A stretch of 64,000 bases of DNA from Protoeuglena noctilucae (taxonomy: Eukaryota), in the NCBI GenBank assembly GCA_958009085.1, contig OY253669.1, forward strand, positions 1,612,001 to 1,676,000. Direction: 5' to 3'. The position numbers and the translations under genes were made by a program. Below the pieces are notes generated by a model. It had not been told where the DNA came from, made no database searches, and saw nothing but the letters and a program-made list of their open reading frames with translations. Of the stretch, positions 3,737 to 56,350 are shown one piece after another; the stretch's first letter is position 1, and each line of letters opens with the position of its first letter.

Positions 3737-6700
3737 TCACTGCCCCAGCATCTGCGCGATGCGAGCGGACCGGAAGTCGTCCCTCAGCTTCACCATCTCC
3801 AGCGCTTTCCGCCGCAGCAGACCTGCATGGGTTACAGAAGGCAGTGAGATCGATGACACCCGCACCGTCAGCCGCGCCCAGGTCTGGTGAGCCGCCGCCA
3901 CGTGAACAGCGCCCCGTGCCACGCACCCATCGAGTCGATGACGCCAGGAATCGATGCCGGCTCCACCAAAAAGACCCCCAGGACCTCTGCCAATGCCGCC
4001 ATGTCCTGCAATGCAAGGCATGTCACACCACCCTGGCAGGGTGGCCATCATCAACGGCCAATGCAGTGCAATGCAGTGCAGTGCTGCGCTGTGCTGCGCT
4101 CTGCTGCGCCATGCTGTGCCGTGCAGTGCATGACCATGCCATGCATGCTGTGCCATGCACGCTTTGCACACTTGCACCCTCCAATCCCTCGCCTTCTCCA
4201 CTGCGGGGCATTTGAGGTCCGCGGCCACCTCCTGCAGCTCCCTTAGGTCCCGCTTCAGCTGCAGGGCGCCCGTGGAGCAGAAGGTGTACTTGCCCACGTG
4301 GGACTCGAGGGCGTCAAACATGGCACGTGCCAGATCTGCAGGCAGGTGCAGGGACTCCAGACTCCGACCTGCCCCAAGTGCGGGGCAGAGTCACATGTGC
4401 CCGCCACCCATGTGCATGCCACCCATCTGATGTCACCCATAGCATGCGCCAGTCACACCCATGTGCATGCCACCACATGCACCCTCGCATCTCGCCCTCA
4501 CCCTCCGTCAGCCGCTCTTGGTTGCCGCTGTCGGGGATGCACGCCTGGATGTCGCGAGCGGCCGCACGCACGAACGACGCCACCAGGCTGATGCCGGGCG
4601 TGGGGCGGTCCAGCTGCGGCGACGTCTCCCCCGTCACCTGCACACACAATGGGGCGATTGATGCTCATAAGACCCTGGCAGGCCGAGGCAAGGGTAGGAG
4701 CACGGAAAGGGCTACTGAGAGAGTTGCTAAAGCGCGGCGGAGAGGGCTGTCAGGTGTACCCGGGTATCCCATGTGCCACGACGGCACCCACCCCTGAGCC
4801 ATGCGCCCTGGCACCCCCGCTCGCCTTGTAGAAGGACTTCTGCGTATTCAGAGACAGCGTCTGCAGGAGCTGCTGCTTGACGGCCGCCTGTGCCTTCTGA
4901 AGGATCCCTTCACAGGCGCCCTCCGCCTCGCCAGCAAACAACCGCATCCCCGTCTCAATGTTCTGTCGCGCCTCACGGGCGCCGGGACCCTCCATGACCG
5001 GCAGCACTGCGGCGGGGAAACTGAGATAGTTTATTCAAATAACACTGCTGTGGGGTGACGGGGCAAGTCACGCTGCGAGTCATCGCGCCGTGACGCGCGA
5101 CGGCAGCAACACCCTCTCAACTGTTCGGCCCCACAGGCGCGCAGTTCTCACGTGTCGATCGGACGAAGTCGTCCACGAGCGCCGCGAGCTGCGTGGCCAT
5201 CGCCACCGCGACAAACGCGTGAGCCAGGCCCTCCCTCACGGCCTTGGTCGTCTCCTCCGCTGTCATCCCCGGCCTGAGAAGAGAAGTCATACAGGGTAGA
5301 GTATATGGCTCTGCACAGACCAAAGCCACTCTTGCTTAGCGCTTGCCTAGCGCTTAATCCCTAAGAAGCCCCTGTGTAGTCCCAATCGACTCACTTGAGT
5401 GGCCTGTCGCACCCCGCCCTCATGAGCACCTCTGCCAGCTCGAGCCCACGCACGACGCGCTGAGCAAAGTGTCCGAAGAAGCTCGCGGGCGCCAGGGACG
5501 CGCTCTTCACCCAGGTACGGGGGTACATGAGCGCCTGGACGCTCTCCAGCGATTCCCTGCACATGCATGAGCCATGATGTGCCAGTTGCCAGTTGCGAGG
5601 TGTACAACCCGTGACACGAGTAGTGCATACGAGCGGGGTTCTTGCTTGTTCCGCGGTGTGTTGCTCAACCCGCTGCCATACTGACTACAATCGTACCACC
5701 TCCTTTTCCTACACGCTCAAGCTGGCCCGCACCCGCACCCGCCCTATCGCCCGCAACCGCACTGGCACCACCACTCTCCTCACTCACCCGCTGTTCTGGG
5801 ACAGGACCACCACGCGGTCGACCATCTTGCTGAAGCGCTCCAGGGCGCCGGTGGTCACCGTCTTGCCCGCGATGGCTGATATCACCGCCGCACTGTCGAG
5901 CGTCTCATGGAGGGCCCTGTGAGAGCAAAAGCAAACAGGCTCATGTCAGACAGTGTGTTGCCTCAAACAGCATGCTCTCTCCCTCGGAGGCACAAAGGCG
6001 GTGACAGGCAAAGGGCAGGTGCGGTGCAGCAGCAACGTTTGGCGACATGGCAGCGTCAGTGTCCCTCGGCCTCCCCAGCACGTGAGAGACGACCCCCGTA
6101 TTCCCACAGAAAAAGCATCACTGGGTTGTAATAATGAGGATGATCAGCTACGCCCAGCGCCCCTCACTTGAGCAGCATGACCTCCGCGTCCACATGCACC
6201 GCCAGCATCTCTGCCAGGGCCGCCGGGCCCAGTTTCTCGATCATGGGGCACGGCACCGCGAGCTTCGAAGCCACCTCGATCCCCGCGGCCTGGGCGACGC
6301 AGTGGAAGGGGGTGAGTCAGCAGCGCAGCAGGGTCGTGCGATGATTGCGCGTCTGTGCAAAATATGGGCGATGGTGGGGTGTGCACGTCGGGGTGCGTGG
6401 GTGCCGGCAGGCAATCAGCGGCCACACGGCCACCCATTAAGCTGTTTTTGAACTAAGTGGGGCAGTCGCATATGCACCAACGCCATGCAAAGCACAGCCC
6501 ATGCCATCTCACCTGCAGCCGCTCGTACATGCTCCTGAGAGCCTCGAGGTAGTCCTCGATTTCATCCACGGTGGCATCCGAACTGCAGAAGATTAGACAA
6601 GGAAAACAGGCGTGTCGATGGACAAGCAGGTTACCACTCGCGGCCGCAGTGCCCATTGCAGACATCTAATAAGGAAGGAGAGACAATGACATGTGCTGCA

Positions 6701-8926
6701 CAAGTGACCCCCGCCGCCTTTGCTAGACAACCCAAGCAGGGCTTTAATGATCACACACCCACTGGGCGCCCGTGGCAGCTCGCCTGGGGAAGACGAGGCA
6801 GTTGCGCATGATGGGCTTGAGCTGGCTCTCGACGGCTGCCGTGAAGAGGGCGGCCATGGGCCTCTCTGGGTCCTGCAGGATGGTCCTGAGCACCTCAGAC
6901 TCCCGGCTTATGAGTTGTTGGAAGTCCAAGATGACGCGAGCCTGCAGGGAGGAAGAGCAGTTGCTCGCATTAGCGATGAAGCATGCGTGCGTGCGACCAG
7001 ACCAGTGACCATCGCGGGACGCCGCACAGGTGAGCCTGGCTGCCACCCCGCTGCGTGGCACCCCCACTACAACCCGACTACAACCCCCCCTGCCACCCCC
7101 ACTCACCAGCGCCACGTTCCTCTCCCCAGGGTCCGTGAAGTCCGAGGACGGGACCACTGGCACGGTCGCAGGGTGGCCGTCCAGGTACAGGGTCGGGAGA
7201 GTGGAGCCCCTGCCTAGCGCCTGGGAGGCACGGAGAAGGGGTGATGTGAGACGGGCAAGGGAAGCAGTCAGTCAGTCACTTTGCAAAGCTGCAAAGCCCC
7301 GCACCTGCAGCAACTCTGCGGCCCTCTTCATCCCCGCGAGGTCCTTCGTGGCACAGGCGCCTGCGTGTGTAACGATGATAGCGAACACATTGGAAGAGAG
7401 ACGATGCGGGATGCAGAGAGCTACAGAGAGGCACGGCGGGCGTGTCACGAGACAGAGCTGTCATAACCAGAGCTGTCGAATGACAGCGACAGGGCGCCAC
7501 GCTTGGGATTCCAGCTGTTGTGCAGTGATCCATCCACATCCACAAGCAGCCTTCCAGTTCCTCAAGAAACTCCTAAACAGCCATGGGAAGGCAGCCTTGC
7601 CTTGAAAGTCCTTCACCGCGGCCTCCTCGCTGCGCCGCACGTGGGCGTGGAGGTTCTCCACCGCGATGAGCAGCTGGCCCAGGTTGACCGTGCCTCTCTG
7701 CACGGGGCCGTCGTCGAAGTCCGTAGAGTCTGGGGGTGTCCAGGCAGCGAGCACGTTCACGTTTCTAGTACAAAAGAAGCAAGGAGGAGGAGCAGGAGCT
7801 GCACATGCTAAGCACCGTCTTAAAAGGACAGCCCCTGAAGAGCGTTGCCCCAACCACACCACCCTCGGCGCACCACCGTCCCAGTCACACCACCCTCAGC
7901 ACAGCGTGCCCCAGTCACGCCGCACCTGCGGGCCCTGTCGTGCGGTGGAGCAGCTCCTCCGCCACGGACAGGAGCTCTGCGGCCTTAGCACACGCAGCCA
8001 CGCGCTTCTGCTGGGCGTCTTGGCCCTGGAAAACGGTGAACTCTGGCGGCAAGTGCTGTAAATTGGGGCCCGCCTCTGCAAAGTCCACCAGGTGCCTGCG
8101 AGGGGGTCAGACCTGGCACTGGCAATCGTGACTCGACCCTGGGCGTGCTGCACTGAGAGAGGCCAACTTGTGTGCCCCATCTCAATATGACGCACCGGAT
8201 GATGCGGTGTGATTGTTCGGCCCGAATCCTCCTCTCCTCCGTGAGCTTCAGCTTCTCCACTGCGAGGGAGCGAGGCAGGAACGCTTGTCGGTCCCGGCTT
8301 CTGGGGTCCACAACCGGCGGCCCCACCGCAGGGGCCTTGCCAGGCCCACGCAACACGCACCCGTCTCTCCCGAAACGCTCAGGACGCCCTTGAGCGTGGA
8401 GTCCAGCTTCTGGCACTCTTGCAATGCGCTGGAGATGCCCGTCTCAAGCATGGCTGCGGGAATGGTGGTTGGGTTGGTTGTTGGGTTCTTGACTCGTTTG
8501 CTCATCAGCTGGTACACAGGGGCGCAGCCCTCCCGCCCGCGCTGCCCACCAGCGGATTCCAGCTGCTCTCGCCGCCTCGCCTCCACGTCCTCAATAATGG
8601 CCATCACCTGCGTGACGAGAGTGCTGGGAAGGGGATGCGCGCAAGGTACGCCTGACCCCGGGGAAGCAGCAGCAGCCTTCCGCACGCACCCTGTCTTGTT
8701 GCTGCGTCTTCACATGGTACACCTGCTCCTCCAGCTCCGCCAGGCTGGCAATTAGGCCGTCGATGGAGAGGTTTTGACCCGCTGAGAGGGAAACGGCCCT
8801 GGTTCGGTCGCGGTGGTGGGAAGCTGCGGTCTGTCAGGCTCCCACAACGACTTTCAGCACTGTACCTTGGAACGCTCGCGCCAGGACCTTGCTGGGCAGC
8901 GTCTCGCTGACGAAACCGCCCTGCAT
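3737..8926 (-). CDS. SEC10: Exocyst complex component SEC10 (EXOC5), multi-exon
   Basis: Spliced segments match Sec10 motifs: FQGACATKDLAGMKRAAELLQ, ESEVLRTILQDPERPMAALF, IEDYLEALRSMYERL, HVGKYTFCSTGALQLKRDLRELQE, LAEVLGVFLVEPASI, KLRDDFRSARIAQMLGQ*. Start ATG (MQGGFVSETL) is tentative. Confidence 0.85.
4065..4165. repeat. Degenerate pentamer (TGCAG/TGCTG/CATGC) microsatellite in a SEC10 intron
   Basis: atgcagtgcaatgcagtgcagtgctgcgctgtgctgcgctctgctgcgccatgctgtgccgtgcagtgcatg. Confidence 0.7.
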
Positions 8927-9440: not shown

Positions 9441-10565
9441 ATGCCCATCGACCTGTCCGAAGTGCCCGTGGGTGATCTGATGGCCGAGGTCAAGCGCCGC
9501 CTCGAGTGCCAGGACAAACCAGAGCGCCGGGTCATTCTGATAGGTGAGAGGCTCCAGGGCGCGCGCGGCGTCCGCGGTTGCGCGCGATCGAGCTCGGAGG
9601 GCGGTCTGCGCCTGCCAGGCGGGGCCACACCGGGGAGATCCGCTCCCCGAGACGTCGTTTGCAGGGCCTCCCGGTTGCGGGAAGGGCACGCAGTCGCCCA
9701 TCATCAAGAAGGACAACTGCCTCTGCCACCTGGCCACGGGTGACATGCTGCGTGCTGCGGTGGCCGAGGGGACTGCGATGGGGAAGAAGGCCAAGGCGGC
9801 GATGGACGCGGGCGCGCTCGTCTCCGACGACATCGTTGTGGGGATCATCGCCGACGCCGTGAAGAAGCCCGAGTGCCGCAACGGCTTCATCCTGGACGGC
9901 TTCCCGCGCACGGTGGCCCAGGCCGAGATGCTCGACTCCATGCTCCAGAAGGCGAGACCCGGGCGTGGCCTCCGCGCATGGACAGCGCATGCAGCACCTG
10001 TCGGCTACAGCGATCGATCCGTGACACCTCGCTCGCGTGTGCCTCGGCCCGCAGCGTGGGGTCGGCATTGACAAGGTCCTCAACTTCCTGGTCCCGGATG
10101 AGACCCTGGTGGAGCGCGTCACGGGGCGCTGGATCCACCCGGCGTCCGGCCGTTCGTACCACGAGAAGTTCGCGCCGCCCAAGGCAAGTCGACAGCATGC
10201 GCGGGCCAGGGCTCGCCGAGCGGTCCCAGCATGGGCCCACCTTTACATACGCCCGTGTGCCTGTGCAGGCGGCGGGGGTCGACGACGTGACCGGGGAGCC
10301 TCTCATTTGGCGCAAGGACGACAACGCGGAGACGCTCAAGGCCCGGCTGGTGAGGAACTGAGGCGTGGTGGGGTGAGCCGGGCTGGGAGAGAGTGGCGGG
10401 GCGAGCGTCTCAGATTCCCACCCCCACGGGCGGTCGCAGGGCGCTTTCCACGCTCAGACGCAGCCCGTCATCGAGTACTACAAGCGGAAGGGCATGGTGT
10501 ACGACCTGGTCGCGGACAAGCCCGCTGCCGACGTGACGTCTCAGGTCCGCAAGGCCCTGAGCTGA
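9441..10565 (+). CDS. ADK: Adenylate kinase (plant ADK3/4 type), 5 exons
   Basis: [15 protein letters not shown]-loop, [19 protein letters not shown], lid [25 protein letters not shown]. Introns 2 and 3 are GC-AG. Confidence 0.97.
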
Positions 10566-12506: not shown

Positions 12507-15500
12507 ATGGGATTCCTCACCTCGCGGCGCTCGTCGGGAGCCTCCCTGCCGCGGTACGCCCCAGATGGCACCCCCATCGCGCATTCCGTGACGGGCGTCG
12601 AAGGGGAGCCAACTTCTGGCGACGGCCACGGCCACCACCTGGAGCGGTCGCGGCATTCCCTGGCGGCAATCAGCATCTCGGACAGCGTTAGCCTCCGTCC
12701 CCCGGCAAGGGCAGGCTGGCTTCCGACACGCAGCCTGCCGCCTCTCGTACCCTGCAGCTCTCACAGCAGCCGGTCTTTGCTCTCAGGTCCCGAGCGAGTC
12801 TGGCAACCCGGGCCCCTCCAGCGCCAGGCCCAAGAAGCGCCTCTCCGCCATCGCCAACTTCCAGCAGTGCTTCGGCTGCGGATCCGGGAGCCGCAACACC
12901 AACTCAGACAGGCGAGAGGCGCGAAGCCCTGGGAGCGGCCCTGCCAGTCTCCTGAGCCCAGGGGAACGGACCCTGACAGCGGCCCCGACACGTGTGCCGC
13001 GCCCGCAGCGACATCGAGGAGACGTCCCAGGGGCGGCTGGTGCCGGGCGGTGATTCGTTCGACGACCCGGACCTGGCCAAGCCCTGGAAGCACGATGACC
13101 CAGCCCTTGCATGGGCACCCGACGACCCCGGGTTCGCCACTGGGCCCTCGGGACCGCAGACCTTCTACCTCCACACCCAGGCCCTCGTGGCGCCCCACGG
13201 CGGCAGGCTCGTCCCCATCACCAGCGGTGCGCCCCCGCAGCGGCTCGCTGGATTCTTCCTCATTCAGCCCCTCCAGGCCATGCACTGCATGCACACCCCT
13301 CCCCCCGCGCGCAGTGGGCGCACCAGCCCCGCCGGGCATGCCGGTGGGCATCCCGATCAAGGGAGTTTTCACGCCCATGGAAGCTCGGCCTGCGAACATG
13401 CCGATGCCCCCGGCGCCCGCCCCACCCAGCCTTGCCCCCGGCCCCGGGCCCTCGAACATGCCCCCAGATGACCTCAACCCTGCGGCCGTCACCTTTGCGA
13501 TCAGAGGCCAGGGAGGGCCCAGCCTCCACGCGGGCGGGGCGGCCCCTGCGCCCGATGCCGTGCCTGGGATGTCGTCCCCAGGGGGCCGGCCACCGCAGCC
13601 CCGGCCGCTCCCAGAGCTGACGCTGGCCATCACGTCGCCGAGCCAGGATCCGCCCCACGCGCAGCTGATCGCGTTCCCTCCGCCGCTCAGCACCGCGTCT
13701 GGCGACCTCCACCGCCACACCCAGTCCCAGGGTACCCCCCGCGCGTCCCCCAGCACCAAGATCCGCCTCGTCATCAAGGTGCGCGGTAAAGGGTTAACCA
13801 CGCCGATCCCAGCGCCCAACCCTCACCATCCACGGCCCTGGCTCAGCACCCGCCCAGCGTCGTTGTGCCATGACGTGCGAGAGGGCCATCCTTCACCCTA
13901 TCCTCTTCATTCACGTCCACCCACGCAGTGTGGCTTCCGCATGGACAACTTGAGCGGCGCGGAGCCGGGTTCCTTCTCGAAGCTCGTCGACGTCCCGCGC
14001 GAAGGGCCCCTATCACATGTCGAGAATTTGTGCAGGGGCGTGGCCGGGCTGCCGCCCCACGCAGACATGAGCCTGGCCTTCCTCCTGCCCGGCGCCGGTG
14101 CCGGCTCAGACAACGAGGTGATGGCAGCGCCGGTGCTCGCCAGGTCGCCTGCGCAAGCTGGAACGCGCCACACGCGGGCACTGGCTGCAACAGTGCACTC
14201 CTTATCACACACAACAGCCCGCACAGTCGCCCGCCCTCCCCGCGCGCGCAGTTGATGAACTTGGAGACGCCCGATGACTGGGAGGTGCTCGTGAGCGAGT
14301 ACGATGCGCTGCCCCCGGGTCAGCGCGTGCGGGTGTACGTTCTCTCGGGCCGCAAGGGCCCCAGCCTCGCCCTGTCCCGAGAGCACTCGCGAGGATCGAA
14401 CCGGTCCGGCGTGCACAGCCACGGCAGCCACGGGAGCCACGGCGGGCACGGGCCCCACGGCGCCCACCCCAGCCCCCACCACGCGACCCAGGGCTCCCAC
14501 ACGCACGCCAGCCCCCTGTCGCGCCCGCGGCCCCACCACGGCCGCTCCAACTCGGTGCCGGGGCTGGACCTCGTGCAGATCGGACTCGACCAGGCGGAGA
14601 GGATGGCGGCATCCAACGGCCCGCCCTCGGCCCGCAGCGCCACGTCCCACCTCCACGGCATCGCCTCAGGTGACTGCCACCACCACTCAAGCACTACTAT
14701 GCCACCACTGTACTGCCATTGCACCACCACTCTACCACTACTATGCCACCGCCGTTCTGCCTCGTGTGCCTCCTTGTGCTAGCTCTAACCAGCCCCACCC
14801 AGCTGCGCCCACCTCCACCCGCCCCGCGCTTCACTGCCCGCAGCCTCGCCCATTCCCATCCTGCCCCCCTCGGGTCCCCTGGCACCCGGGCCGCACTCGA
14901 ACTCCGCGAGGTCCCGCGCCCGCGTCTCCCGGCAGCACGCCACCCCGATGATCCGCATGGGCTCGGTGGGTGACATTGACGCCATGCGCGACGCCCCCAG
15001 CCCCACCCCGGGCCCCGCGTCCCTTTCCAAGTCGCCCCACGACAGCCTGTGGGCCGCGCCCCCGATCAGCCCCGGCTCAGCGTCGCGACACAAGCGGTCC
15101 AGTCACGGGGGGTGAGGAGACACGCATGTAACTCACCGCCACCCCGCACGCACACGTATGCTGCCGCCCCATCAACACCTCACCGCCTTTCCTTGGTGGA
15201 TTTACAATCTCACAAGAAGAATGACCTCGCATCTTATTCTCACCACGTCCCCCCGCCCTTGCAGGTTCGTGCACCCGCCTCCCCGCCCGCACCACCAGCG
15301 TAAGGGCAGCCTGGACGGCGACCCCCCGCGCCCCATCTCAGCGCGCGCATCGCTGCCGACCGGGCGCGCGGCGTCCCCCGTGCGCCACGGCCCGGGCCTG
15401 GACCCGGACTCTGCGCGCGGCGTGCCGCACCGGCACTCGTCGCTGCAGGGAGTGGCCGCGTGGCCGGCGGCTGCGGTCGACACCGCGTGGCCCTCCGGGT

Positions 15501-26280: not shown

Positions 26281-26312
<32 letters not shown>

Positions 26313-26460
26313 GGACGTGGGCAGGGGCGAGAGGGACGCGGACGAGGGCAGCGACGATGAGGATGACGACGACGAGGACGATGACCGAGGCAATGTGCGT
26401 GATGCGACGGCGTCTTTCAACGTGGTTGCGTCTCATGTTGAAGGCTGCGGCTCTGGATAG
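24667..26460 (+). CDS. TOC34: Chloroplast outer envelope translocon GTPase TOC34 with acidic C-terminal extension, 5 exons
   Basis: WTGLRDF, VLLLGKPGVGKTSTMNSI (G1), DTPG (G3), LYVDRLDAYR, LTHA, VALVEN, WLPDLV; hydrophobic anchor WLVPLLLVAQVALKMLV. Confidence 0.92.
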
Positions 26461-29504: not shown

Positions 29505-32337
29505 TTATCCGTGCGGGGGCCGCCCGTGCGCGCCCTGGGGCGCCAGCGGCATGGGCAGGGACACGCCCCCGCCCTGCCCGGGGAGCTGCACCAGGTGCGG
29601 CGGGAGGGACAGGGGCGGCATGGTCACGGGAGGCACGTTCGGCAGCGTCGAGGACAGCCCGCGCGGCGGCAGCACCCCCTGGCTCCCCAGCGGCTGCGGG
29701 GCGCCCGGCAGTGCGGGGAGGATGAGCGGGGGCATCCCCGCGGAGCCCGGAGGGGGCAGCGAGGCGGCCAGCTGCCCCCCCGCCAGCGGCAGCGGGGCCC
29801 CGGGCAGCTGCAAGGCAGGGAAGGCGCCGCTCGCCGCCGGCGCCAACGCCGGGCGCCCCTCCGCCACCAGCGGTGCAGGCGGTGCGGCGGCCGCTGCAGC
29901 CACGCCGGCGTCCAGGGGTGCGGCGGGCAGCGCCTGCGGGAGCGGCGAGGGAAGGCCATCCGCGCCGGGAGCCCGCCTCAATGTGCCTCTTGACGTCGTG
30001 CTGTCCACCGCACCGGACCGCACCAGACCCACCTGCCCAGCCCCTGCGGCGCCGAACGCCAGCCCCGTCTTCTGAGCGCGAAGCAAGTCGAGGGGATCCT
30101 GCGGCAAGGACCTTGTTCCCGCCCCGACGTTGCTGGCGGCCATCTGCTTGACTTGGAGGTGCGACCCGTGCGGGGTGGCCTGCGACAGCTGGAACAGCTC
30201 CTCCCTGGAAGGCCGCTGCGGGCGACAAGGAGACAGATGCGAGGGTTGTCGGCTGGTGAGAAGTTGCCTCGGCGTGTCACACACAAACGACCGCAATGGT
30301 CGTGAGGCGTCCCCCCCGCCCTTCCCCATCGCTCCCACGCCGGGCCCCTCGCCTGCACGACTCTCTGCGACATGAGCTTCTTCCCGATCTCCAGCATCGA
30401 GCTCAGGTGCCGCTTCAGGGTCGAGTCGGGCACCGGGAGCGACCCCGCCAGAACATCGCGTGCCGTGTTCTTGTTCACGCCCCTCGAGGCCATGATGACC
30501 TCCAGAGACACGTGCTCCCCCTGATGCGCCTGGCTGACCTCGTTGGTCATCATGCTGCGGGGGAGGGGCGAGCGGAACGCAGCACTCACGCCCCCGATGC
30601 AACGGCAGCTCCCTGGCCTCCGCGTCGTGGCAGCGGGGGCGCCGTCGTCTCGCGCACCGGAACTTGCTCTTGCACCCGTCGGCCCGGCGGTGCAGCCCCT
30701 GCAGCGCGTTGCTGCTCGACTGCACGTCCGCCACCAGCGCCCAGTTTAACCCAAACTCGTTGATGATGCACAGGAAGAGCTTCTCCTCCTCCTTGCTCCA
30801 CGGCGGCGTGCGCAGCATCGCCTGCGTCCGCATCACCACGTCCTTCTGCCGCTGCAGCATCGCCCGGCTGCGAGGGTCCACCTGGGCCGCAGCTGCGCGC
30901 TGCGCCGGCCCCGGCTTGGGCTGCGGCCGCCGCGACCGCCCGGCGCCGTCCATCTCCACGTCCTCGTCCCGACGAGCGGGGCGCGCCGTCGACAGCGGGC
31001 GCTTGCTCGACGGGAGGCGGACCTTGGGCACCCCCTTCCGGAAGCGCGCCGAGTCCAACTCCAGCCCCCCATCCCCCAAATTGGCGCGGAGCAACTCCTC
31101 CTGCGCTTCCTGCGGCAGGTCGTCGCGGGCGGGAGCGCGGTGCCACGACCAGGCCGGCGCCGAACCCGCTCGCATGCCCATTACAACCAGGAGGGCCGTT
31201 AAGTTATCCTCCACAACAAAGAGCCTCACAACAAGCGCACACGTAGCCACACCGGAAGTCCCACGGCCCATCGCCCGCTCCAGCCACCCCCCGGCCAACC
31301 CGGCAGCCCCCACCTTGACCTTGTGATGCGCCACGATCCTCCTCGCTGCCTCCAGCTCGATCTCGTACTCCCGCAAGCGGTCCTCGAACTCCACCTGCCG
31401 CCGCTTCTCGGCCGCCTCCAGGTCCCGCAGCAGCAGGGTCACCACGTCCGCATCGCAGTCGTACACGAGAGGGAGGGCCTCGTCCACGTCCGGGGGAGTC
31501 AGCGGGCCGACGTCCGCGTCCCCGGCGGCCCGGTGCGCAGCGCCGCGACCACGCGTCGCGGGGTCCGCACGGCCACGCACCTTGCCCACCAGACCGCTCG
31601 CGTGCAGGCGGTGGTGGTAGGCGTGGTCCCCTGTCTCCTTCTCCTGGGTCATCACCGAGGGCAGGCGCGTTCAGCGCCACGCCGGCCAGCAGCAGCTGCC
31701 GCGGGGTGCGCTTGTAACGACAGGGCGGCACGCAGCAGGCTGTGATGGGGCACACAGCGCCTCGCCTTGACGGGGTGCAGGAACCCCTTCCCCCCCCGCA
31801 CGCGCTTGGCACACAGCCGCGCGAGCTGCGCTGCCAGCGCGTGCTTGAACCTCCGCTCTTGCATGAAGTCGGTGCACATCCACCGTGCCTCCTTGAGCAC
31901 GTAGTCCCAGGCGGGCTGGTTCATGGGGGGGTCCTTGTAGGGCTCCCGCATCGCTGCGTTCACATTCCCGTGCATGGCGCGGATCCGCTGCGCCTTCTGG
32001 ATGATCCGGTCCTCCTCCCTCCGCCGCTGCGTCGCCTCGGCCGCCTGCTGCTGCGCGAGGCTCGGGCCGGGCCCAGCGGGCCCGCCCCGCACGTCCCCTG
32101 CGGGCGGGGAGCGCGGCAGGCGTCCGCAGTCAGACTAAAGATCGGAGCAGACCCGCGCAGGACAAAGCATCCGGGAGCCGGGCGACCCGCGCGGGCCTGG
32201 CGGGGCGGAAAGCGCCGCAGCGTGCTCGGGCGGGCCTGGCCGCGCGGCAGGGCAGTCGCGCGCGCGGGCTCGGGCGCGCGGAGCCCCCTCGTCCCCGCAA
32301 AGGCCCGACGGTCCGGCGCGCGCGGCCCCGCACCCAT
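29505..32337 (-). CDS. EAF1: Chromatin modification protein EAF1-like (HSA and SANT/Myb domains; NuA4 scaffold)
   Basis: HSA: AWDYVLKEARWMCTDFMQERRFK. SANT: PPWSKEEEKLFLCIINEFGLNWALVADV...HRRADGCKSKFR. No SNF2 ATPase seen. A 4-nt first coding exon (ATGG|gtgcgg) is inferred. Confidence 0.82.
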
Positions 32338-37767: not shown

Positions 37768-38985
37768 ATGCCGATGACCGTTTCCAGGAGCCACTTTTCC
37801 TGGCCACGGTCCGTAGTCCACACGGCATGCCGGTGCGACCTGGTCGCTCTTCGACGCGGCCGCCGCGTGCGGGCGCCACCTGCGCGCGCAGCGGGTGGGG
37901 GGGCGCGCGTGCCTGGCCCTGACGGGGCTTTCGACGAGAGTTCCCGCGGAGAAGCGAGGAGGAAGCTGTTCAACAACATCGCCCCGCAGTATGACGCTCT
38001 CAACGACTTGCTCTCGCTCGGGTGAGGCTCGCATGGCGGGGCGCGTCTCCAGGCCTCTCCTCTCCGCGCCCCGTGGGACCTAGCCCCCCTCGACCCCGCA
38101 GCCTGCACCGGGTGTGGAAGCGATGCGCCGTGATGTGGTGCGCCGCGCCTGAAGGAGGCCGCGTGTTGGACGTCTGCACGGGGACGGGAGACCTGGCCTT
38201 CCTGCTGGCGCAAAGGTGCGGGCGCCCCGCGCTGAGAACGGACGGCTCCACGAGGAAGTGGTGTGAGTCGCGGAAACCCTCGCGGCTCGCAGCGTCGGGA
38301 GGGACGGGGAGGTCGTGGCAGTGGACTTTGCGGCGGACATCCTGCGGGAGGCCCAGCGGCGCTACGACAGCCTTCCCCGGTCGGACAGGTACCGGACACG
38401 CATCACGTTCAAGGAGGGCGACGCACTTCGGCTGCCGTTCGAGGCGAGGAGAGGGTCGCGTCACATGGCGCTCTTGGGGTGGGCCTGGCGGCGTGATGCC
38501 AGAGATGCGGTGCGAGGAGCCGCACGTGCAACCCGCAGGGCAACTCCTTCGACGGAGCGACCATCGGGTACGGCCTGCGCAACGTGGGAGACCCGCTGGT
38601 GGCCCTCCAGGAGCTCTGGAGGGTCTTGAAGCCTGGGACGCGTGCGGTGGTCCTGGACTTCAATAACCCCAGGGACGCCCCCGTGGTCGACCAGTTCCAA
38701 TCGGTGATGCTGTCGCGCGTCGTGGTCCCGGTGGCCTCCATGATGGGCCTGGGGGAGGAGTACGAGTACCTGCGCCCCTCCATCGAGAGGTTCCCGACCG
38801 GCAGGTGCGAACGGCGGGGGCACCACGGAGGGCTTGCAGCTCGCAGGTCTGCTAGCGGTCAAGCCCACGCGGTCTCGCGCGTCCGCAGGGAGCAGGAGCG
38901 CCTGGCGAAGGAGGCGGGCTTCACCAGCGCACGCCACTACGAACTCGCGGGGGGGCTCATGGGGTGCTTGGTCGCAGAGAAGTAG
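37768..38985 (+). CDS. MENG: Demethylphylloquinone (2-phytyl-1,4-naphthoquinone) methyltransferase, UbiE/MenG family, plastid
   Basis: [70 protein letters not shown]...LDFN, EYEYLRPSIERF; N-terminal transit-like peptide. Confidence 0.92.
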
Positions 38986-39212
38986 CACTTGGTCCAGGCG
39001 TAGCGCTCAAGCCGACGCGTCGCACGACCTGCCTTCAAAGGCTTACCCTTCCGAACAAATCTGCTAGCGAGTGCCGAGCCTGTCGCGGCCCCTGACCCCC
39101 CGGCGGCGGCTCTAGCCCAGGAAACGGCGCTCCCAGCGCCTGTCTATGCACAGGGGCGGTGCAGCCCACGGCGCCCCAGGAGTGGCCCTGGCCAGGGAGC
39201 GCGGCACCGCGC

Positions 39213-40755: not shown

Positions 40756-41145
40756 GGTTGCCGCCGTGCTGAGAGGGCGCCGCGGGCTGGCTGGACCGGA
40801 GATGCGATGGGAGTCCGGCGAGAGGGGCTGAGGCGGCGCGGTCAGCGGTTCGGGTTTTGTCAGAACTGAAGTGTCACGACACCGCAGCCCGAGTGGCCGC
40901 CCGCCGACTTCCGCCGCCCCTCTCCCGCCCGCCGCCTCCGACATCGCGCCCTCCTTCCCTCAGCCACCGGTGGGCCCAGCCCCTTCCCCTCTGCCGGCCG
41001 CAGGTGCCCTCATCCACGGGGGGCACGCTTGCGGCGGGGCCCTGGCGTCCGCCATTCGCCCGTCTCGCCGCGATTTCGTCGACGCACCCCGTGACCCCGC
41101 CCTCCAGCCCGCCCCCGCGCAGGAGCGAGACATCGACCGTGGACC

Positions 41146-42176
41146 ATGGCCCCCCTGGCCGCGCGGGCCCGGGTGTCGGCGGGGTTTTCTCGTTCGGAGG
41201 TTTCGACGCGAAGGAGCGTGACTTGCATGGCTGCTAAGGGTGAGGCGGACGGGCCCCTCGGCTGCCAAGCACTGCTGCGGCCCTGCCGCGCGTGACCGGG
41301 CGTGGCTCGGTCACGGCGCGGTCACCCACGAGGGCGTGTGACCCCACCGGCGATCGGGGGACAGGCTGGGCGCCGGGAATCGCGCGCGGCGGCGCGGGGG
41401 GATGGGATCGAGCTGCCCACCAGCCGCGGCCCCCCGTGCCGCGCGTGGGGCGCCTCTCAGTTCCCCGCGGCTGCGCCCTCGCATCCAGGACTTTCCCACC
41501 CGCTTACGAGCGTCGTTGCTTGCCGCACACGCAGTGTCGCGCATTATCAAGCTGGCGCTGCCGGCAGGGAAGGCCAACCCCTCCCCGCCCGTGGGTCCCG
41601 CGCTGGGTGCGGCTGGTGTCAACATCATGGGGTTCTGCAAGGAGTACAACGCAGCGACGCAGGTGAGGCGCCGGCGTCCCGGGGACCCCAGGGAGCTTAC
41701 CGTTGCGACGTTTGTGTCGCCGCCGCGGCCCAGAGGGCCCGAGGCGCGGCCCCCTCGCGACACGCGCATGCGCAACTGCCACCCGTTGCTCTGACTCCCC
41801 CAGGAGAAGGTCGGGCAGGTCATCCCCGTCGTCATCACGGTGTACGAGGACCGCTCCTTCACGTTCGTGCTCAAGACGCCCCCGGCGTCCGAGCTGATCA
41901 AGGCGGCGGCGGGGATCAAGGCGGGGTCGGGCACGCCCCAGGCCAAGAAGGTGGGGTCCATCACCCAGGACCAGCTGAAGGAGATTGCGGCCACCAAGCT
42001 CCCCGACCTCAACTGCACCTCGGTGAGCGGGCGCAGCCGGGGCCGGGAGGCGTCGCGCGTTGCCCGGGGCGGTCGGAGGGCGAGCGCGAGCATGTGGCCG
42101 TTCGGACCCGCAGATTGAGGCGGCGATGCGCATCGTGGAGGGCACGTGCAAGAACATGGGCGTCACCGTGGCATGA
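41146..42176 (+). CDS. RPL11: Plastid 50S ribosomal protein L11, 4 exons
   Basis: Transit peptide [85 protein letters not shown]. Confidence 0.96.
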
Positions 42177-42541
42177 CGGAGGGGGCCTTAGCACAAGCGA
42201 GGAGACGGACGGGTTGATTGATTGATCTCTCGACAGTGGGAGGCGCGTAGACGTCCTCTGGGCTCGTGTGTGCGTGTGCTGCACATGACAGGGCCTCGTT
42301 TCGGCCCGTCGTGGACGCCCTTGAGGACTGGTGTCCTGTACGGGGTCTGGCATTACTTGTGAAGACGCGACTGCGAGGAGATCTTTGCCAAACGCTCTGC
42401 GGAAGAGCCGTGGGACCTGATAGACGTGTGTGCCCGCCGTCAACAGGCCTTTGCGCCCACTGCTTAGTCCGGGATCCTCCTCTCAAGTCACGGTCATCGT
42501 AAGCTTGTCGAGCAGCCTGCGGGCGGCTCGCTCCGGCAGCC

Positions 42542-44269
42542 ATGGCGTACTCGGAGGACGCGCGCGTGACGGCGCGCCTGCGTGCGTCGCCTTCCTTGGT
42601 TTTCCATAACTTGGCGATCCAGGGCGATCGCGTCTTGTACGCGCACATGGTGACTGCTCCGCCCGGCGCCGCGGCGATGACGGATGCCGCATCCGGGCCC
42701 CGGATGCAGATGCGCGCACATGGGCAGCCTCGATCCGCCCTCCCGAGGACTCATGCACGCTGCTGGGCTACGTAATCGCTTTTCGGAATGTGAAATTACC
42801 GCAGGATCAAGTGTGGGCCGTGGAGGTGGCTTCCTTGATGCGCGGAGGCGAGGAGACGAACGTGGACTCCAAAGGGCGCAAGATTGCCACGGCGAGTCTC
42901 TGCGCGGCTAAGAGTGGTACTATGCTGGTGTGTTCAGTCCGGTTGCCCCTGACACTGCGCAGCCGCGAGGTTTATCGGCGACGCTGCGTCTCCCGGGGAC
43001 CCCGCAGGCCCAGGAGATTTGTCAGATGCAGGCCGACCAGGCGGGGCGCGTCGTCAACCACATCTGCCCCATCGTGCTCTCAAGTGGGTCTTTCATCGCG
43101 CTGGCGACCACGCTGGGCGTCCAGGTCTTCGACGGCAGCGGCAAGGCCCTCAAGCTCTTCTGGCCCTTGCCGGAGAAGGTGCCGCCGCGCGCTGCCGACG
43201 AAGAGCGATGCGATTCGCCGCACACAGGCTCTTCTCCTCGCGTCCGTCCTGCATCGATCCCCATTTCATGATACCCGCGCCCGCAGGACGCCCCGGACCG
43301 GGCAGTCGAGCACGCGTCGACCAGCTGCTGCTGGGTGCGGGCCGCGAGCGGCGACGTGTGCCTGTGCGTCGGGTCCTCGAGCGGACGCATCTACGTCTTC
43401 GGGCTGGACGAGGGCGGGGCGCGCATGCCCCACATCGCCACGCTGGTGGACCAGATGGGCAGCTCCATCACGGCCCTCGGGTCGCACCTTCAGAGCCGCG
43501 GGGGGCGCCCATCGCCCGAAGACCCGGCCATGCTCCTCTCGGGCGACGACTCGGGGCGCGTCATCATGTACAGGTGGGCACTTGCGCCGGTCCCCGCACC
43601 TCGCATCGCAGTTGCGGGCGCGCCCCCACCCTGCCTTCTCGATGCACGTGTGGGCGGCACCCTGCCGCGCTTTCTTCTGCCTGTGCGGCCACTGCGTCTC
43701 ACGGAGCGCGCCCCTCGCACCGCCTGTGCAGCGTCCCTGACACCCGGTCCTTCACCAAGTGCGGGGAGCTGTCGGGGCGGACCATCTGCGTGGGCCTGGC
43801 GGCGCGGGGCGACCTGGCCGTCGTGGGATCGATCGACGGCGTCGTCAAAGTCTACAGCCTGTCAGCGCTGGGGCTCCGCGCTGAGGTGGTCGCCCACTCG
43901 CGCCTCATGTCGGCCCTGGGTGAGCGCGGGAGGGGCGCGGAACAAAGGCGCAGCGAGTGGTGGCTCATGGTCTGGTTGTCGCGTTTACGCAAACTCCTGG
44001 GGCACCCATCATTGGACTTCCTACCGCCCATGCTCCCTGCCCCCGCAGCGCTGCACCCAACCCGCGACGTGGTGCTGTCGTGCGGGGAGGACGCCACGGT
44101 GTGCGCTTGGACGCTCCCGACTCCCGGCAACGACGCCGTCCGCATGCTGCTCCAGGCCGTGTGGCAGAACTCGCTCCTGACGGGCGCGTGCTTCGCGGGG
44201 GACAACGTGGTGGTGGTGCCGTATGATCACGAGGAGGCGGCCGTGTACAAAGTCACGGGCACGTTGTGA
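42542..44269 (+). CDS. WDR54: WD-repeat protein WDR54-like, multi-exon
   Basis: N-terminal LRASPSLVFHNL, CVGSSSGRIYVF, AEVVAHSRLMSAL, VLSCGEDATVCAWTLP, LLTGACF...YD resemble WDR54. Confidence 0.75.
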
Positions 44270-44296
44270 GACGTGTCGTGAGACGTGTCGTGAGAC
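44266..44296. repeat. 12-bp tandem repeat (GTGAGACGTGTC x2.5) overlapping the WDR54 stop codon
   Basis: gtgagacgtgtc gtgagacgtgtc gtgagac. Confidence 0.85.
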
Positions 44297-44466
44297 TTGC
44301 GTGTCGTTAGAAGCGCAGGGGTGGGCAGGAGGGGGAATGAGGTGAAGCTCAGCGGCTGCAGCGGCTGCTTGCCCCAGCCACAGCCACGCCCTCTGCGGTG
44401 GGCGCGCTTTCGTGGTGCGATGGGAACTCTTGTTGCTTTGGCGCACTGGGTCGGTCAGAGAGGATC

Positions 44467-44495
44467 TGTAAAACGGAATCGCAGCGAACGTTACA
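44467..44495. promoter_or_regulatory. Facing TGTAA polyadenylation signals for WDR54 (+) and SMC3 (-)
   Basis: TGTAA at 44467-44471 (+) and TTACA at 44491-44495 (TGTAA on -), each about 200-230 nt downstream of its stop. UGUAA is the known chlorophyte poly(A) signal. Confidence 0.5.
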
Positions 44496-44721
44496 GGGGC
44501 TCTTGCAGCAATGACGCCTTGCAGAGAGCCACACTGTGGGCTCTGTAGCGTGGGCTTTGACAGGAATAGCCAGCTCTGAGCCTGATGGTGCGCGAGCCCT
44601 CTTTCACATGAAGCATGCCTCTGTCGCCATCTCCAATCTACCAGTATCTCATAATGATAGCAAGACAAAGCGCGCCGCAGCACAGGCCCCGTGACGCATC
44701 CGCAAACGCCATCCCTAATGC

Positions 44722-51959
<7,238 letters not shown>

Positions 51960-52416
51960 GGTCCGCGAGCCGCTAATGGATGGGGAAGGTATCCCTCATC
52001 TCACGAAAACTCCTCAGGAGTCCCAGGCCATGCGTCCTGTCCCTGCTGTTGGTTTCCCGACAATGCCAGCCCCTTCCTGCGGCGTATCCGATGATATCCT
52101 TGCTCGATGACGTCACCAACGGCACCGTCGACTACATAAGTGCGCTCAGGCCGGGGCACACGCACCTTTTCCGCGACCCAGGAGTTCCTGCAAGGCCTCT
52201 TCTCTGGCACGATAGGGGTATCGTCCCGGCTCTCCCTCCTGGCATCTCGCGGTGCCCGAGGGACGTTGCGGAGAGCGCAAGGGTTTGTTGCGTGACCTGT
52301 GGAGGCCCACTGGCGCCGCGGCCGGGGGAGTGGTGCGCGGCAGAGACGGAACTCGCGCACCCGCCCCTGGCCGACCCCTCGCCGCGCATCTGGCCCAGAA
52401 CACGCCGCCCACAGCG

Positions 52417-55137
52417 ATGGCGGGCAGCGACGACAACGCCAGTGATGTCGAGGCGCGCCTCGGCCGCGCCTTCCGTGCATTCTTCACGAGGCAGGCACGT
52501 CCCCGCTGCTCTGCTGTGTTGTGTTTTGGACCTGCTCTCTTCTCCGCGCCAGCACACTCACAGCTTCCGATGTACCGTCGCAGGCGCTCGCTCGTGTGGT
52601 GTCCTTCGCCCTCAACGCAGCCGTGGCGCGGCAAGTGGGGCCGGGTGGCGCTGCGCTGCTCACTGTGCAATACCCGCTGCTCCTCAACTCGATCCTCTAC
52701 ATCTCCCGCGAGGGGTTCCGCAAAAGCTGCATGCGTCTCGGGTGAGCGCCGGCGCTGGAACCGGGCCCAAGACGGATCGGGCCACTGCGCCAGACCGATG
52801 GGATGCGGGGGGCCGCTTGTCCCTGCAGGGACCCAGAGCTGGACAGGCGCCACCCCGGCACGTCGCACACGTCGCGGGTGCTGTCGCTGGCGTGGCTCGT
52901 GGTGCCCCTGGGCCTCGTATGGGGCCTGGTCCTGTCGGCGTGCGCCGTCGCGTGGGAGGGAAGCCTCTCATGGCGCCCCTGGGTGTCCCCGTCCGCGCTC
53001 CCCTCGCTCTCCTGGACACCCTTCGCTGCCGGCGTCGCCATGTACTATGCAGCCGCGGTGGTGGAGCTCTGTGCCGAGCCCCTCCACATCCTCGCCCTCG
53101 CGACCGGGTGACCCCTGGCGTGCCGCTCGCACCTCTCTGTCACAACGGCGGCAGCTCTGCGCGTCGCTGGCACGCAACCCACTTGCCGGCAGATTGGCCA
53201 GCCTAGCGTAGTCGCCCTGTGCGACTGCCAAGCACCTGTGGACTAGACAACCCCGACCCTGCCATGCAGGTCTTTCGCCCCGGTCATTTGGTGCGAGGTC
53301 GTCGGGTCTCTCGCCAGGAGCGCCGCGATTGTCTTCGTCTCGCGAGGAGGGGCGGGGGCGCATGCGGTCCCAGTGGCAGTGGCGGCGGGGCTGGGGCAGC
53401 TGGCGTTCGGGGCATCGGTGCTCGCCATCCACGTCGCCTTCCGCATGACGGGTGCGCGTGGGTCGCACCGCTCAACGAGCCTGCCGCTCCATCATGCCCC
53501 GGCACCGTGGCATGCACCGTGGATCGATGCAACGCACTGCGTGTGCGTTGCACCCACCGGCTGCATCTGCCACGTGTGCCTTGACTGACATTTTAGATCC
53601 AACACGTTCCCTTGCCGCGGCCCGTGCGCAGACCTTCCTTGCTGGGTCGCGGCGTGGTGGATGGGCAAGGTCACCGCCTTCCGGCCCCGATGGGCGCTCT
53701 CCATGCTGGCATCCTTCGGAGTCCAGTCGGCAGGAAAGCACGTTCTGGCCGAGGGCGAGAAGATCGTGCTGCTGACCGTGGCGCCCATGCCTCCGGCAGA
53801 CCAGGGCGTGTACGGGCTCGCCAGTAACCTCGGCTCGCTGCTGGTCCGGATGGCATTCACCCCATTGGAGGAAAGCGCCTTCCTCGCCTTCTCGAGCAAG
53901 TGCAGGCGAGGAGCGCTTTCTGACCAGTCGCTGGAGCGAGTGTGCCACAGCGAAAGCACAGTTGTGGCACTCGCTCTTTAGCAATGCGCCCGTCTTGCAT
54001 GGATGAGCGTGGTGGCTAGCGTTGTGCCGCAGGGCGCCGAAAGAGCCGGAGCGCGCGAGGGATGTGCGTAGCGCAGTCGCGGCGGCCGCCGATGGCAACG
54101 GCGCAAGCACAAGTGCCCAGAGCGCTGCGGGCGCCACCGAGGGTGGGACGGGCGCAACGGGCGAGGCATTCGGCGACGACTTGGGGGCCGCTCTGGGTCT
54201 CTCTTCGCGCCTCGTGGGAACGCTCTCCCTGCTCGCCACGGCTCTCGGCCCGCCCCTGTGCTCTCTGGGCGTCCATGTCCTCTACGGTGCCGTCTGGCGC
54301 AACACAGACCTCCCGGCCGTGCTTGCGTGGTACTGCTGGTACCTGAACGTCCTGGCGATCAACGGCATTGCGGAGGTGAGCGGAACGCTCTCGGCGCGGC
54401 GCACCCTCAGCTGCATGGCACGCACCCTAGGCTGCATGGCACACCACCCCAAGCGTAGCGTGGTTCGTCGCTGACGTTAGGACGTGTGCCTTTGCTGGCG
54501 TGCACGCAGGCCTTCCTGCACGCGACAAGCTCGCCCCGGGACCTCCACTGGTCCAACGCGGCGCTTGCAGTCTTCTCCGCCGCGCACCTGGGCGTATGCG
54601 CCCTGCTCGTGCCCGCGCTCGGGGTGCGCGGGGCGCTGCTGGCGGGGGCTATCAACATGGCCATGCGCATCGCGTGGTCCTTCTCGTTCGTCACGCGGGT
54701 GTACCGAGGCCGGCAACGCGCGTGGCTGGCGTCTGCCCTCCCGTCCGGAAGGCTGCTTGTGTCCCTTGGTACAGCCGCCGCCGTCCTCCGCATTTCAGGT
54801 GACATGCGGCGCCCTCACACCTTCCGCGACGCCGGGACTGCTGTAAGCGTGTCCTCAACGCCCACTCACGCGCCTGGCTGTCACAGAGTGGGCCACTGCT
54901 GGTCACCTTGCTACTGCAAATGGGTTGTCAGCACCTGTGGCGGGCCTGGTCGAGTGGCTTCGGGCCAGCTGGCTTGCCTCGACTTTCTCCCGGTCATGGC
55001 TCGCGGCAAGGGTCGTCTCGCGACTCGGGAATGCGTCGGGTGCGGTGCTTGCCCACGGAGCGGTGGCCGCCCTTGTGCTGCCAGGGACCCTGTGGGCGGT
55101 CCTGGCAGATGTCCGGCGGGCACGGCGCGCGACGTGA
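52417..55137 (+). CDS. RFT1: RFT1 (Man5GlcNAc2-PP-dolichol translocation protein), multi-exon
   Basis: QALARVVSFALN, LLLNSILYISREGFRKSC, VELCAEPLHIL, KHVLAEGEK, DQGVYGLASNLGSLLVRMAFTPLEESA, YCWYLNVLAINGIAEAF, AGAINMAMRI. Confidence 0.93.
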
Positions 55138-55588
55138 GTTGGATGTGGGCGGTTGGTCGCTCTCACTTCGGGTCTTGGGGCTGAGTATAACCTTCTGGCG
55201 CCGCATCTGGCGCAGTCTCTGCGACTCTGCTAGTGTTTTTTCTCCGGATAGTTATTGAAAGCTGTGAGATTTCACTGAAAAGCGCCTTGCTGGGCTTCAG
55301 CGTTTTTCGAGGTGAGGCGGGGCGGGAGAAGACCAATCGACGATCCCGGTCGAGCGGCCTCGCAGCTGCACTGAGAGCGACAACGTCGATGCCATTGGAC
55401 GTGTCTATCTCTTATAAAGTTGTCTGCGTCGACAGTTCATGTCGGGAACCCCAAGCCGGACCAGAACGGCGGTGCCTCGCTTGGGCCCGGACTCCCGCGT
55501 CTCCAGCCCCACGAGGCGCTTGGAAAGCAGCGAACCACTCAGATAATCACCTTATCATCCCGCGAATCCCAATGTAATCGCAGGAACC

Positions 55589-56350
55589 ATGCCGTTCTGC
55601 CTGATATCCGGCACGTTCGTGCCGGACAAGTCCAACATCTGGCGCGACTGCGTGGATGGCTACTACGACTGGGTCAAGGTGCAGCGCTTTGAAGACAGCT
55701 ATTCCATGAAGCCCGCGGGGTCGGGCACCCCGCAACCCGCGTGCAGGCTTCGCATCACGGAGTCACGCTGCCCACGGGCGTCGCCCGCTTCTCTCTGCAG
55801 GAGCACATTGAGGAGGGCGCCCCGCTGAACGAGCCCGACCACTGCAGGGATCCTCCGCTGCTCCTCGCGGCCGGCGGCGGCCACCTGGCCTGCGTGCAGC
55901 TGCTGGTGGAGGAGGGGGCGGACCTGGACCAGCGCAACGTGGTGGGCGAGAGCCCTTTGATCCGCGCGGCCCACAACGGCAAGCTACCCTGCGTCGAGTA
56001 CTTGCTGGACGAGGGCGCGGACGTGAACGCCATCGACATGGGCGACAACACGGCGCTCCACTGGGCCGCCATGCGGGGCCATGTGGAGATCGTGAAGCTG
56101 CTCCTCACCCGCGGTGCCGACAAGGCGAGACCGGAGCGGAGCTGGCAGCGAACGGCGACGTATGACGGCTGACGTTGCATACTGTCACACGACACGGGGC
56201 TGCGTCGTCGCCATGGCCGGGTGCTGATAGCTTCCACCCGCCCCCCCGCAGACGATCACGAACAAGCAGGGCAAGATGCCCATCGACCTGTGCCAGGCGC
56301 AGTGGTCCAACGCGTGGAAGTTCACCCGGCAGGTGCTCAGCGCCTTCTGA
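55589..56350 (+). CDS. Small ankyrin-repeat protein, 3 exons
   Basis: PPLLLAAGGGHLACVQLLVEEGAD, SPLIRAAHNGKLPCVEYLLDEGADVNA, TALHWAAMRGHVEIVKLLLTRGADK|TITNKQGKMPIDL. Confidence 0.92.

Follow-up and report, generated by a model that had tools for sequence, protein, structure and literature searches.

The stretch of DNA analysed here, referred to below as the window, is a 64,000-nucleotide (nt) segment of contig OY253669.1 (positions 1,612,001 to 1,676,000 of the forward strand) of the Protoeuglena noctilucae assembly GCA_958009085.1. Both strands of the window are densely filled with intron-rich genes, including those for a SEC10-like protein, adenylate kinase (ADK), an EAF1-like protein with HSA and SANT domains, a UbiE/MenG-type methyltransferase (MENG), SMC3, RFT1 and an ankyrin-repeat protein. 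The G+C content is 68.1% over the window (one run of 200 N excluded) and 0.90 at third codon positions (GC3), and the genes carry about seven introns each, or about two per kb of gene, with a median intron length of about 147 nt. A preliminary description of this DNA had listed twelve introns in these genes, and a probable thirteenth, that begin with GC in place of GT and end with AG (GC-AG introns), and had called their frequency exceptional. Our analysis confirmed that the window holds many GC-AG introns, beyond what chance would produce. We consider it likely that they are ordinary introns of the major (U2-type) spliceosome, making up about 9-14% of all introns in a GC-rich, intron-dense marine core chlorophyte.

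The relationship of the organism was assessed with a single gene, SMC3, whose closest relatives appear to be those of core chlorophytes. Its C-terminal exon shares 71-76% identity with proteins of Volvox, Chlamydomonas and Pedinophyceae and with two further records; across the chlorophyte proteins found, the identity of this exon was 63-76%, with no near-identical match. Marine metatranscriptomes (four runs, X1-X4, of a single study) contained RNA contigs that match the window at 99% identity or more. The RNA evidence was taken from these four runs over positions 37200-57199, using the 15 best supported of 41 joints. Pieces of contigs contributed two more junctions, and loose ends that could be placed in the window another two, which with the 15 register-resolved joints gave a set of 19 RNA junctions.

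Gene structures were predicted with a two-strand generalised hidden Markov model (HMM) trained on the window only. It allowed both GT and GC donors, the latter with a prior share. Its coding model, of second order and three-periodic, was bootstrapped from GC3, and the 19 RNA junctions served as seeds for its splice matrices. Before self-retraining the model recovered 10 of the 12 claimed introns and 15 of the 19 RNA junctions; afterwards the counts rose to 12 of 12 and 16 of 19, and it predicted 20 genes containing 139-140 introns. The thirteen introns of the preliminary description are given below (a slash marks the 5' splice junction; margins in bits are those of the gene model over the next alternative unless stated otherwise).

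38444..38538, + strand: GC-AG intron of MENG, gag/GCGAGG...CAG; RNA junction; profile Ubie_methyltran continuous from position 113 to 114; 12.4 bits.

9952..10054, + strand: GC-AG intron of the adenylate kinase gene, aag/GCGAGA; Pfam ADK continuous from position 98 to 99; 17.9 bits, runner-up also GC; kept at a GC prior of 1e-6.

10184..10268, + strand: GC-AG intron of the adenylate kinase gene, aag/GCAAGT; ADK_lid continuous from position 19 to 20; 11.8 bits; kept at a GC prior of 1e-6.

51716..51944, - strand: GC-AG intron of SMC3 after the first 5 codons, cag/GCGAGA; homologues and SMC_N; model margin only 1.9 bits.

47927..48149, - strand: GC-AG intron of SMC3 (the probable thirteenth), tag/GCGAGG; homologue alignment; 8.1 bits.

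44890..45094, - strand: GC-AG intron of SMC3 before the last exon, aag/GCAAGG; homologue alignment; 12.9 bits.

31644..31765, - strand: GC-AG intron of the EAF1-like gene, aag/GCGAGG; homologue HMM 7.7 bits; gene model 13.3 bits over GT.

30216..30352, - strand: GC-AG intron of the EAF1-like gene, cag/GCGAGG; homologue HMM 2.0 bits over a GT donor 6 nt away; gene model 6.8 bits.

4006..4192, - strand: predicted GC-AG intron of the SEC10-like gene, aag/GCGAGG; model only, 5.0 bits over a GT donor 15 nt away; cannot be retained in frame.

4638..4824, - strand: predicted GC-AG intron of the SEC10-like gene, aag/GCGAGC; model only, 6.5 bits, runner-up also GC; internal stops in both reading directions.

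7361..7600, - strand: predicted GC-AG intron of the SEC10-like gene, aag/GCAAGG; model only, 8.9 bits over a GT alternative that shifts both ends; internal in-frame stop.

52495..52583, + strand: predicted GC-AG intron of RFT1, cag/GCACGT; donor margin 3.9 bits, runner-up also GC.

56125..56251, + strand: predicted GC-AG intron of the ankyrin-repeat gene, aag/GCGAGA; model only, 10.0 bits, runner-up also GC.

The most direct evidence concerns the MENG intron. RNA contigs join position 38441 to 38537 with three ambiguous letters, and among the four possible registers only the shift by +2 yields canonical splice sites, which are GC and AG. The resulting junction (38443 to 38539) was present in three runs from two samples, in contigs with depths of 273, 83 and 80. 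For four junctions (both of ADK, MENG and the SMC3 N-terminus) single exons were searched against Pfam, and the profile positions continued across each of them without a gap.

The three SMC3 introns were evaluated against 12 full-length chlorophyte SMC3 proteins, with which the protein of the GC model scored 1486.4 bits and that of the GT-only model 1443.6 bits (42.8 bits in favour of GC). For 51716-51944, the N-terminus of the GC model matches 11 of the 12 homologues, whereas the GT alternative would begin with MESVA; the SMC_N profile starts at its position 5 in the exon that follows the five-codon first exon. For 44890-45094, the GC model keeps the residues VALVTK, which align without gaps in 12 of 12 homologues, whereas the GT alternative loses six residues. 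The intron near 48149, which the preliminary description had offered as probable, is backed by the alignment as 47927-48149, since the GT alternative inserts six residues (RGAVGL) present in no aligned homologue. RNA establishes one of the listed introns and protein continuity supports five more.

For the EAF1-like gene, an HMM of 13 homologues gave 285.5 bits to the GC model, 276.2 bits to the GT-only model (9.3 bits lower) and 116.9 bits to the unspliced open reading frame (ORF), indicating that the introns are required. A frame-shifting intron at 30216-30352 is needed to connect the conserved RHL... and PHxSH motifs, and homology lends modest support to both 30216-30352 and 31644-31765, although the GT donor 6 nt away may be the true one for the former. 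A 715-residue public protein, P0121, is 100% identical to the window. It corresponds to a single stop-free, unspliced ORF (31652..29508, - strand) that reads across three introns as well as one exon lying out of frame, and was therefore set aside as it does not provide independent evidence on the EAF1-like gene.

The remaining listed introns lie in three genes. In the SEC10-like gene, the exon upstream of intron 4006-4192 matches positions 537-581 of the 637-position Sec10_HB profile, and the other exons fit the residual length of this profile. One exon of this gene gave a match in the PDB to Spc24 (E=1.2), which we regard as due to chance, and a second exon gave no PDB match; exact-word scans of metagenome contigs with one word from a SEC10 exon and one from an ADK exon likewise returned no match. 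A run of 200 N (3230-3429), either a gap or a masked stretch, lies just before the 3' end of this gene. In RFT1, the downstream exon (Rft-1 profile positions 15-64) is not preceded by an in-frame ATG, so that an intron is needed here. The exon before the ankyrin intron 56125-56251 stops at position 27 of the 33-position Ank repeat, and reading through its end meets a stop codon after 45 nt.

Beyond the listed introns, the gene model or the RNA pointed to five others:

53906..54032, + strand: further GC-AG intron of RFT1, cag/GCGAGG; indirect RNA.

42892..43007, + strand: further GC-AG intron of a WD40-like gene, acg/GCGAGT; indirect RNA; 8.3 bits.

6583..6783, - strand: further predicted GC-AG intron of the SEC10-like gene, cag/GCGAGC; model only, 6.5 bits.

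12912..13008, + strand: further predicted GC-AG intron of a kinase-like gene, cag/GCGAGA; model only, 8.5 bits.

63883..63997, - strand: further predicted GC-AG intron close to the edge of the window, cag/GCACGT; model only, 8.2 bits; upstream exon truncated where the window stops.

The RNA bears indirectly on the first two. A contig piece starting at 54029 fits, when left-justified, an upstream exon ending in ...GCAG at 53905, whereas the GT alternative would lead to 54033. For 42892-43007, one contig piece ends at 42648 and another starts at 44048; the 733 contig letters between them equal the predicted exon chain, to which the GT alternative would add 36. Two further GC introns predicted by the model are probably false, namely 13999-14064 (retainable in frame, margin 3.1 bits) and 26390-26699 (followed by a last exon of three codons, margin 1.1 bits).

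All 12 claimed introns have, on the gene strand, an exonic AG followed by GC and a terminal AG, and 11 of the 12 read AG/GCRAG, the exception being that of RFT1 (AG/GCACG); this agrees with the motif given in the preliminary description. GC at +1/+2 and a 3' AG are present in all 20 predicted GC introns. Counted on both strands, the window contains 49 copies of the word AGGCRAG, against 26.3 +/- 4.8 in dinucleotide shuffles, and none of 100 shuffles has 49 or more. Retention in frame is impossible for all of the 12 claimed introns. Thus, the claim of at least 12 GC-donor introns stood, with none refuted, all re-derived by the gene finder and several more found; as had been stated, they occur across unrelated genes (10 of the 20 predicted genes).

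The share of GC-AG introns depends on which of them are counted. The 12 claims alone make up 8.6% of the 139 predicted introns (9.4% with the thirteenth), and the gene model places 17-20 of 139 (12-14%) in this class and 119 in the GT class. About 9-14% of introns in the window are therefore GC-AG, far above the approximately 1% of most eukaryotes, as had been proposed; the genome-wide extent is inferred. The RNA-supported junctions comprise 18 GT-AG and 1 GC-AG (the 15 best supported of 41 joints included).

To compare donor sequences, we used the eight GC donors whose support does not come from the splice matrix (MENG, two of ADK, three of SMC3 and the two with indirect RNA). AG at -2/-1 combined with AG at +4/+5 was found in 7 of these 8, but in only 4 of the 18 RNA-supported GT donors (Fisher p=0.003), and the mean number of matches to the consensus complementary to U1 small nuclear RNA (snRNA) was 5.13 and 4.22, respectively (p=4e-4). 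Adenine at +3 was present in 6 of the 20 predicted GC donors and 2 of the 119 GT donors (p=1e-4), despite the penalty that the model matrix places on A there. The stronger U1-complementary flanks of GC donors, which the preliminary description had anticipated, are in keeping with ordinary U2-type splicing with compensation rather than altered machinery. The U12-type donor RTATCCTT was absent from all 139 predicted introns, and a branch-like word with one mismatch occurred in three GT introns. A scan of the window against Rfam gave no matches, and hence no snRNA gene in these 64 kb.

The GT donors of the window are also shifted towards G+C. Their consensus is GTGAG or GTGCG, not GTAAGT, with G at +3 in 111, C at +4 in 40 and T at +6 in only 30 of the 119, so that the shift affects the 5' splice-site motif as a whole. 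The fraction C/(C+T) reaches 0.88 at codon position 3 and 0.62 in the interior of introns, against about 0.09-0.14 at donor position +2. The suggestion of relaxed selection at +2 therefore holds only in a relative sense; T is still strongly selected at this position. The accompanying suggestion of GC-biased T-to-C drift is plausible given 68% G+C, a GC3 of 0.90 and the GC-shifted donors, while a mutational cause would be a step beyond these observations.

A mechanism compatible with these data can be proposed. Strong GC-directed mutation or biased gene conversion would repeatedly turn the T at donor position +2 into C, and the C would be tolerated and fixed only where the site otherwise pairs well with the 5' end of U1 snRNA, that is, where AG precedes the junction and RAG occupies +3 to +5. 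Fixation restricted to such sites would explain why nearly all GC donors read AG/GCRAG. In mammals, 298 conversions from GT to GC and 40 from GC to GT were inferred (Churbanov et al. 2008, PMC2490688, in the available part of the paper).

High shares of GC-AG introns have been published for several GC-rich algae. Chlorella NC64A has 1611 among 21048 introns (7.65%) at 67.1% G+C, Micromonas pusilla 22.2% at 65.9% and Aureococcus 39.6% at 69.5%, while low shares are reported for Chlamydomonas reinhardtii (2.0%), Volvox (2.4%), Ostreococcus lucimarinus (2.4%) and Micromonas RCC299 (2.7%) (PMC3033335). Among pelagophytes, the accessible portion of a preprint gives 14-17% for Aureococcus strains in annotations newer than the one behind the 39.6%, about 14% for Pelagomonas and 0.32% for the low-GC Aureoumbra, and credits the differences to GC content (bioRxiv 10.1101/2024.10.30.620910). 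In Emiliania huxleyi, 56% of donors (135 of 241) are GC, nine of them validated by reverse transcription PCR, and GT-only predictors mis-model genes, according to the sections available of Feldmesser et al. (2014; PMC4028052). With comparable or higher published shares, from 7.7% to 56%, the description of the frequency in the window as exceptional finds no support. Our literature search on GC-AG introns in green algae found no share for a marine GC-rich chlorophyte, and the part of Pucker & Brockington (2018; PMC6310983) that was available held no algal GC-AG figures.

The phenomenon is of a kind already known, and its closest counterpart by G+C content and intron length is Chlorella NC64A, with a share of the same order. 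Like the window, that genome belongs to an intron-dense green alga, with a G+C content of 67.1% (68% in the window) and a mean intron length of 177 nt (a median of about 147 nt in the window); it is, however, a different organism, and its 7.65% was counted over 21048 introns, whereas the 9-14% reported here comes from one window with RNA from marine samples. Micromonas pusilla, Aureococcus and Pelagomonas resemble the window in combining high G+C with a raised GC-AG share, credited by the authors to GC content, but these GC-AG-rich picoalgae have few introns (0.2-0.9 per gene in the case of pelagophytes), in contrast to the approximately seven per gene, without introner-like families, in the window. 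Emiliania huxleyi (65% G+C) shares the GC donors and the mis-prediction of junctions by ab initio models (PMC4028052, in the sections available); its majority donor is GC (56%), whereas in the window GT prevails, both among RNA junctions (18 of 19) and among predicted introns (119 of 139). The U2-type GC-AG introns of animals and plants have the same AG/GCRAG motif, compensating U1 complementarity and AG acceptor, but amount to about 1%, a frequency about ten times lower than in the window.

The preliminary description had also raised the idea of altered recognition of the splice site. If the spliceosome itself were changed, in the U1 5' end, the U6 ACAGAGA box or its N6-methyladenosine (m6A), or U1C/LUC7, it would read C at +2 almost like T, which would account for a share about ten times the usual one and for shares across algae that GC content alone does not explain (PMC3033335). 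An unchanged U1, though, is what predicts the stronger flanks of GC donors relative to GT donors, and sites free of constraint carry C six to nine times as often as +2 does; moreover, Aureococcus and both Micromonas species have a canonical U1 5' end, with far higher shares in Aureococcus and M. pusilla (PMC3033335, as far as the available part of that paper goes). Altered recognition by small nuclear ribonucleoproteins thus found no support in the window and some evidence against it, and we regard it as quite unlikely. A milder variant, in which the tolerance of GC donors rests partly on a lineage-specific reading of the 5' splice site (U1C/LUC7, U6 m6A or U5 loop 1) beyond GC pressure, in an intron-dense genome with one GC donor in seven to ten, would explain the share of about 3% in the equally GC-rich Micromonas RCC299, and has in our view a small chance of being correct.

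We then considered whether the GC donors could be an artefact of modelling, with true donors at nearby GT sites or no introns at all and a real share of 1-2%. In-frame GT alternatives lie within 6-36 nt of the donors or introns at 4006, 30216, 44890, 47927, 51716 and 31644, and the visible RNA junctions are dominated by GT-AG. The dependence on the prior was examined by lowering it: the number of predicted GC-AG introns was 20 at a GC prior of 7%, 19 at 3%, 17 at 1%, 15 at 0.2% and 3 at 1e-6, of which 12, 12, 11, 10 and 3 (both ADK introns and MENG), respectively, were claimed ones. Banning the GC donors one by one cost 1.1-17.9 bits each, and in seven cases, of which six concern claimed introns, the runner-up was again a GC donor. 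As a control, GG, GA, CC, CG or AC was offered in place of GC at equal priors; such decoy donors were chosen 6-8 times at the 7% prior and 3-4 times at 1%, with total scores of 4965-4980 bits. The total score was 5130.3 bits with GC donors and 4971.5 bits with GT only, a gain of 159 bits for GC and about none for the decoys, indicating that the overall GC signal does not come from modelling freedom. In addition, the MENG junction is proven by RNA, and at six junctions continuity with a profile or with homologues fixes the borders, their GT versions producing deletions, insertions or a wrong N-terminus. The RNA-based share of 1 in 19 (95% confidence interval 0.1-26%) is compatible with 14% (P=0.23). 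An artefact is accordingly very unlikely as an explanation of the set as a whole. The gene finder did make errors: it fused RFT1 with the ankyrin gene and missed the RNA junctions 41004-41122, 54799-54886 and 36682-37248.

Several observations weigh against the interpretation of these introns as ordinary U2-type GC-AG introns, driven by GC content and making up 9-14%. A direct RNA junction is visible for one of the 12 claims (MENG) among the 15 best supported of 41 joints, and GC-AG accounts for only 1 of the 19 visible RNA junctions (5%). Judged by the decoy counts, the 17-20 predicted GC donors may include 3-8 false ones, and five of the claims (three in SEC10, RFT1 52495-52583 and ankyrin) are model predictions; homologue searches with one SEC10 exon and one RFT1 exon returned no relatives. 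Contigs of three runs leave the match to the window at 45122, 27 nt upstream of the GC donor of SMC3 intron 44890-45094, and continue with letters that occur nowhere in the window. All estimates of the share come from one 64-kb window, which cannot give a genome-wide rate. Finally, Micromonas RCC299 has 64.1% G+C and yet only 2.7% GC-AG introns (PMC3033335), so that the causal link to GC content is incomplete.

GC donors could also have been selected as weak sites that serve regulated splicing or intron retention. In human, nematode and Arabidopsis they are enriched in alternatively spliced genes (PMC2490688), and in Emiliania they go with high intron retention (PMC4028052), both in the available parts of these papers. 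The genes in the window, however, are housekeeping and unrelated, and retention would truncate 19 of the 20 proteins (among the predicted introns only 13999-14064 could be retained in frame), which makes this explanation highly improbable. The spread of a mobile introner family with a GC donor is barely credible: introners reportedly occur in Micromonas pusilla and Aureococcus, as described by Huff and co-workers in 2016, and two SEC10 GC introns (4006-4192 and 4638-4824) share a length of 187 nt, but these two have no detectable sequence similarity to each other, and an all-against-all blastn comparison of the 139 predicted introns gave three weak pairs, the longest match being 39 nt and none joining two GC introns, so that with no intron sequence families an introner origin is not supported in the window.

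The GC-AG introns of the window have practical consequences. Gene prediction limited to GT-AG would get about a tenth of all introns in the window wrong, touching 10 of the 20 genes, and the only public protein found for the EAF1-like locus is the unspliced P0121, an example of how misleading ORF-style calls can be on a GC-rich eukaryote. An intron-rich green alga is added to the few GC-rich algae in which GC donors are numerous, and in this small sample the GC donors still follow the usual compensation rule. If one donor in seven to ten were GC genome-wide, the genome would contain thousands of GC donors. That the GC-AG share is linked to GC content, with exceptions that lack an explanation, had already been set out in 2011 by Iwata & Gotoh, who called the origin an enigma (PMC3033335), and no new question is opened here.

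Some features of the RNA contigs were noted in passing. The RFT1 region (52091-56350, + strand) contains the RNA-supported junction 54799-54886, and RFT1 most likely ends in the exon starting at 54887. About one third of all RNA contigs placed on the window continue into unlike sequence. Break points other than 45122 were seen in several runs at 54816, 55816, 53390, 41102 and 40180, with 20 to 255 or more letters beyond them that are absent from the window; the breaks, 45122 included, may represent chimeric contigs, strain differences or alternative ends. Back-joints from 44800 to 37341 and from 51305 to 44977, with 28-37 inserted letters, are possibly assembly chimeras through GC-rich low-complexity sequence. 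Poly(A) tails mark the end of a ribosomal protein L11-like transcript at 42376 (+ strand) and of an ELIP/one-helix-like transcript at 56396 (- strand). The latter lies about 46 nt from the stop codon (56350) of the convergent ankyrin gene, a spacing at which the 3' untranslated regions of the two genes probably overlap.

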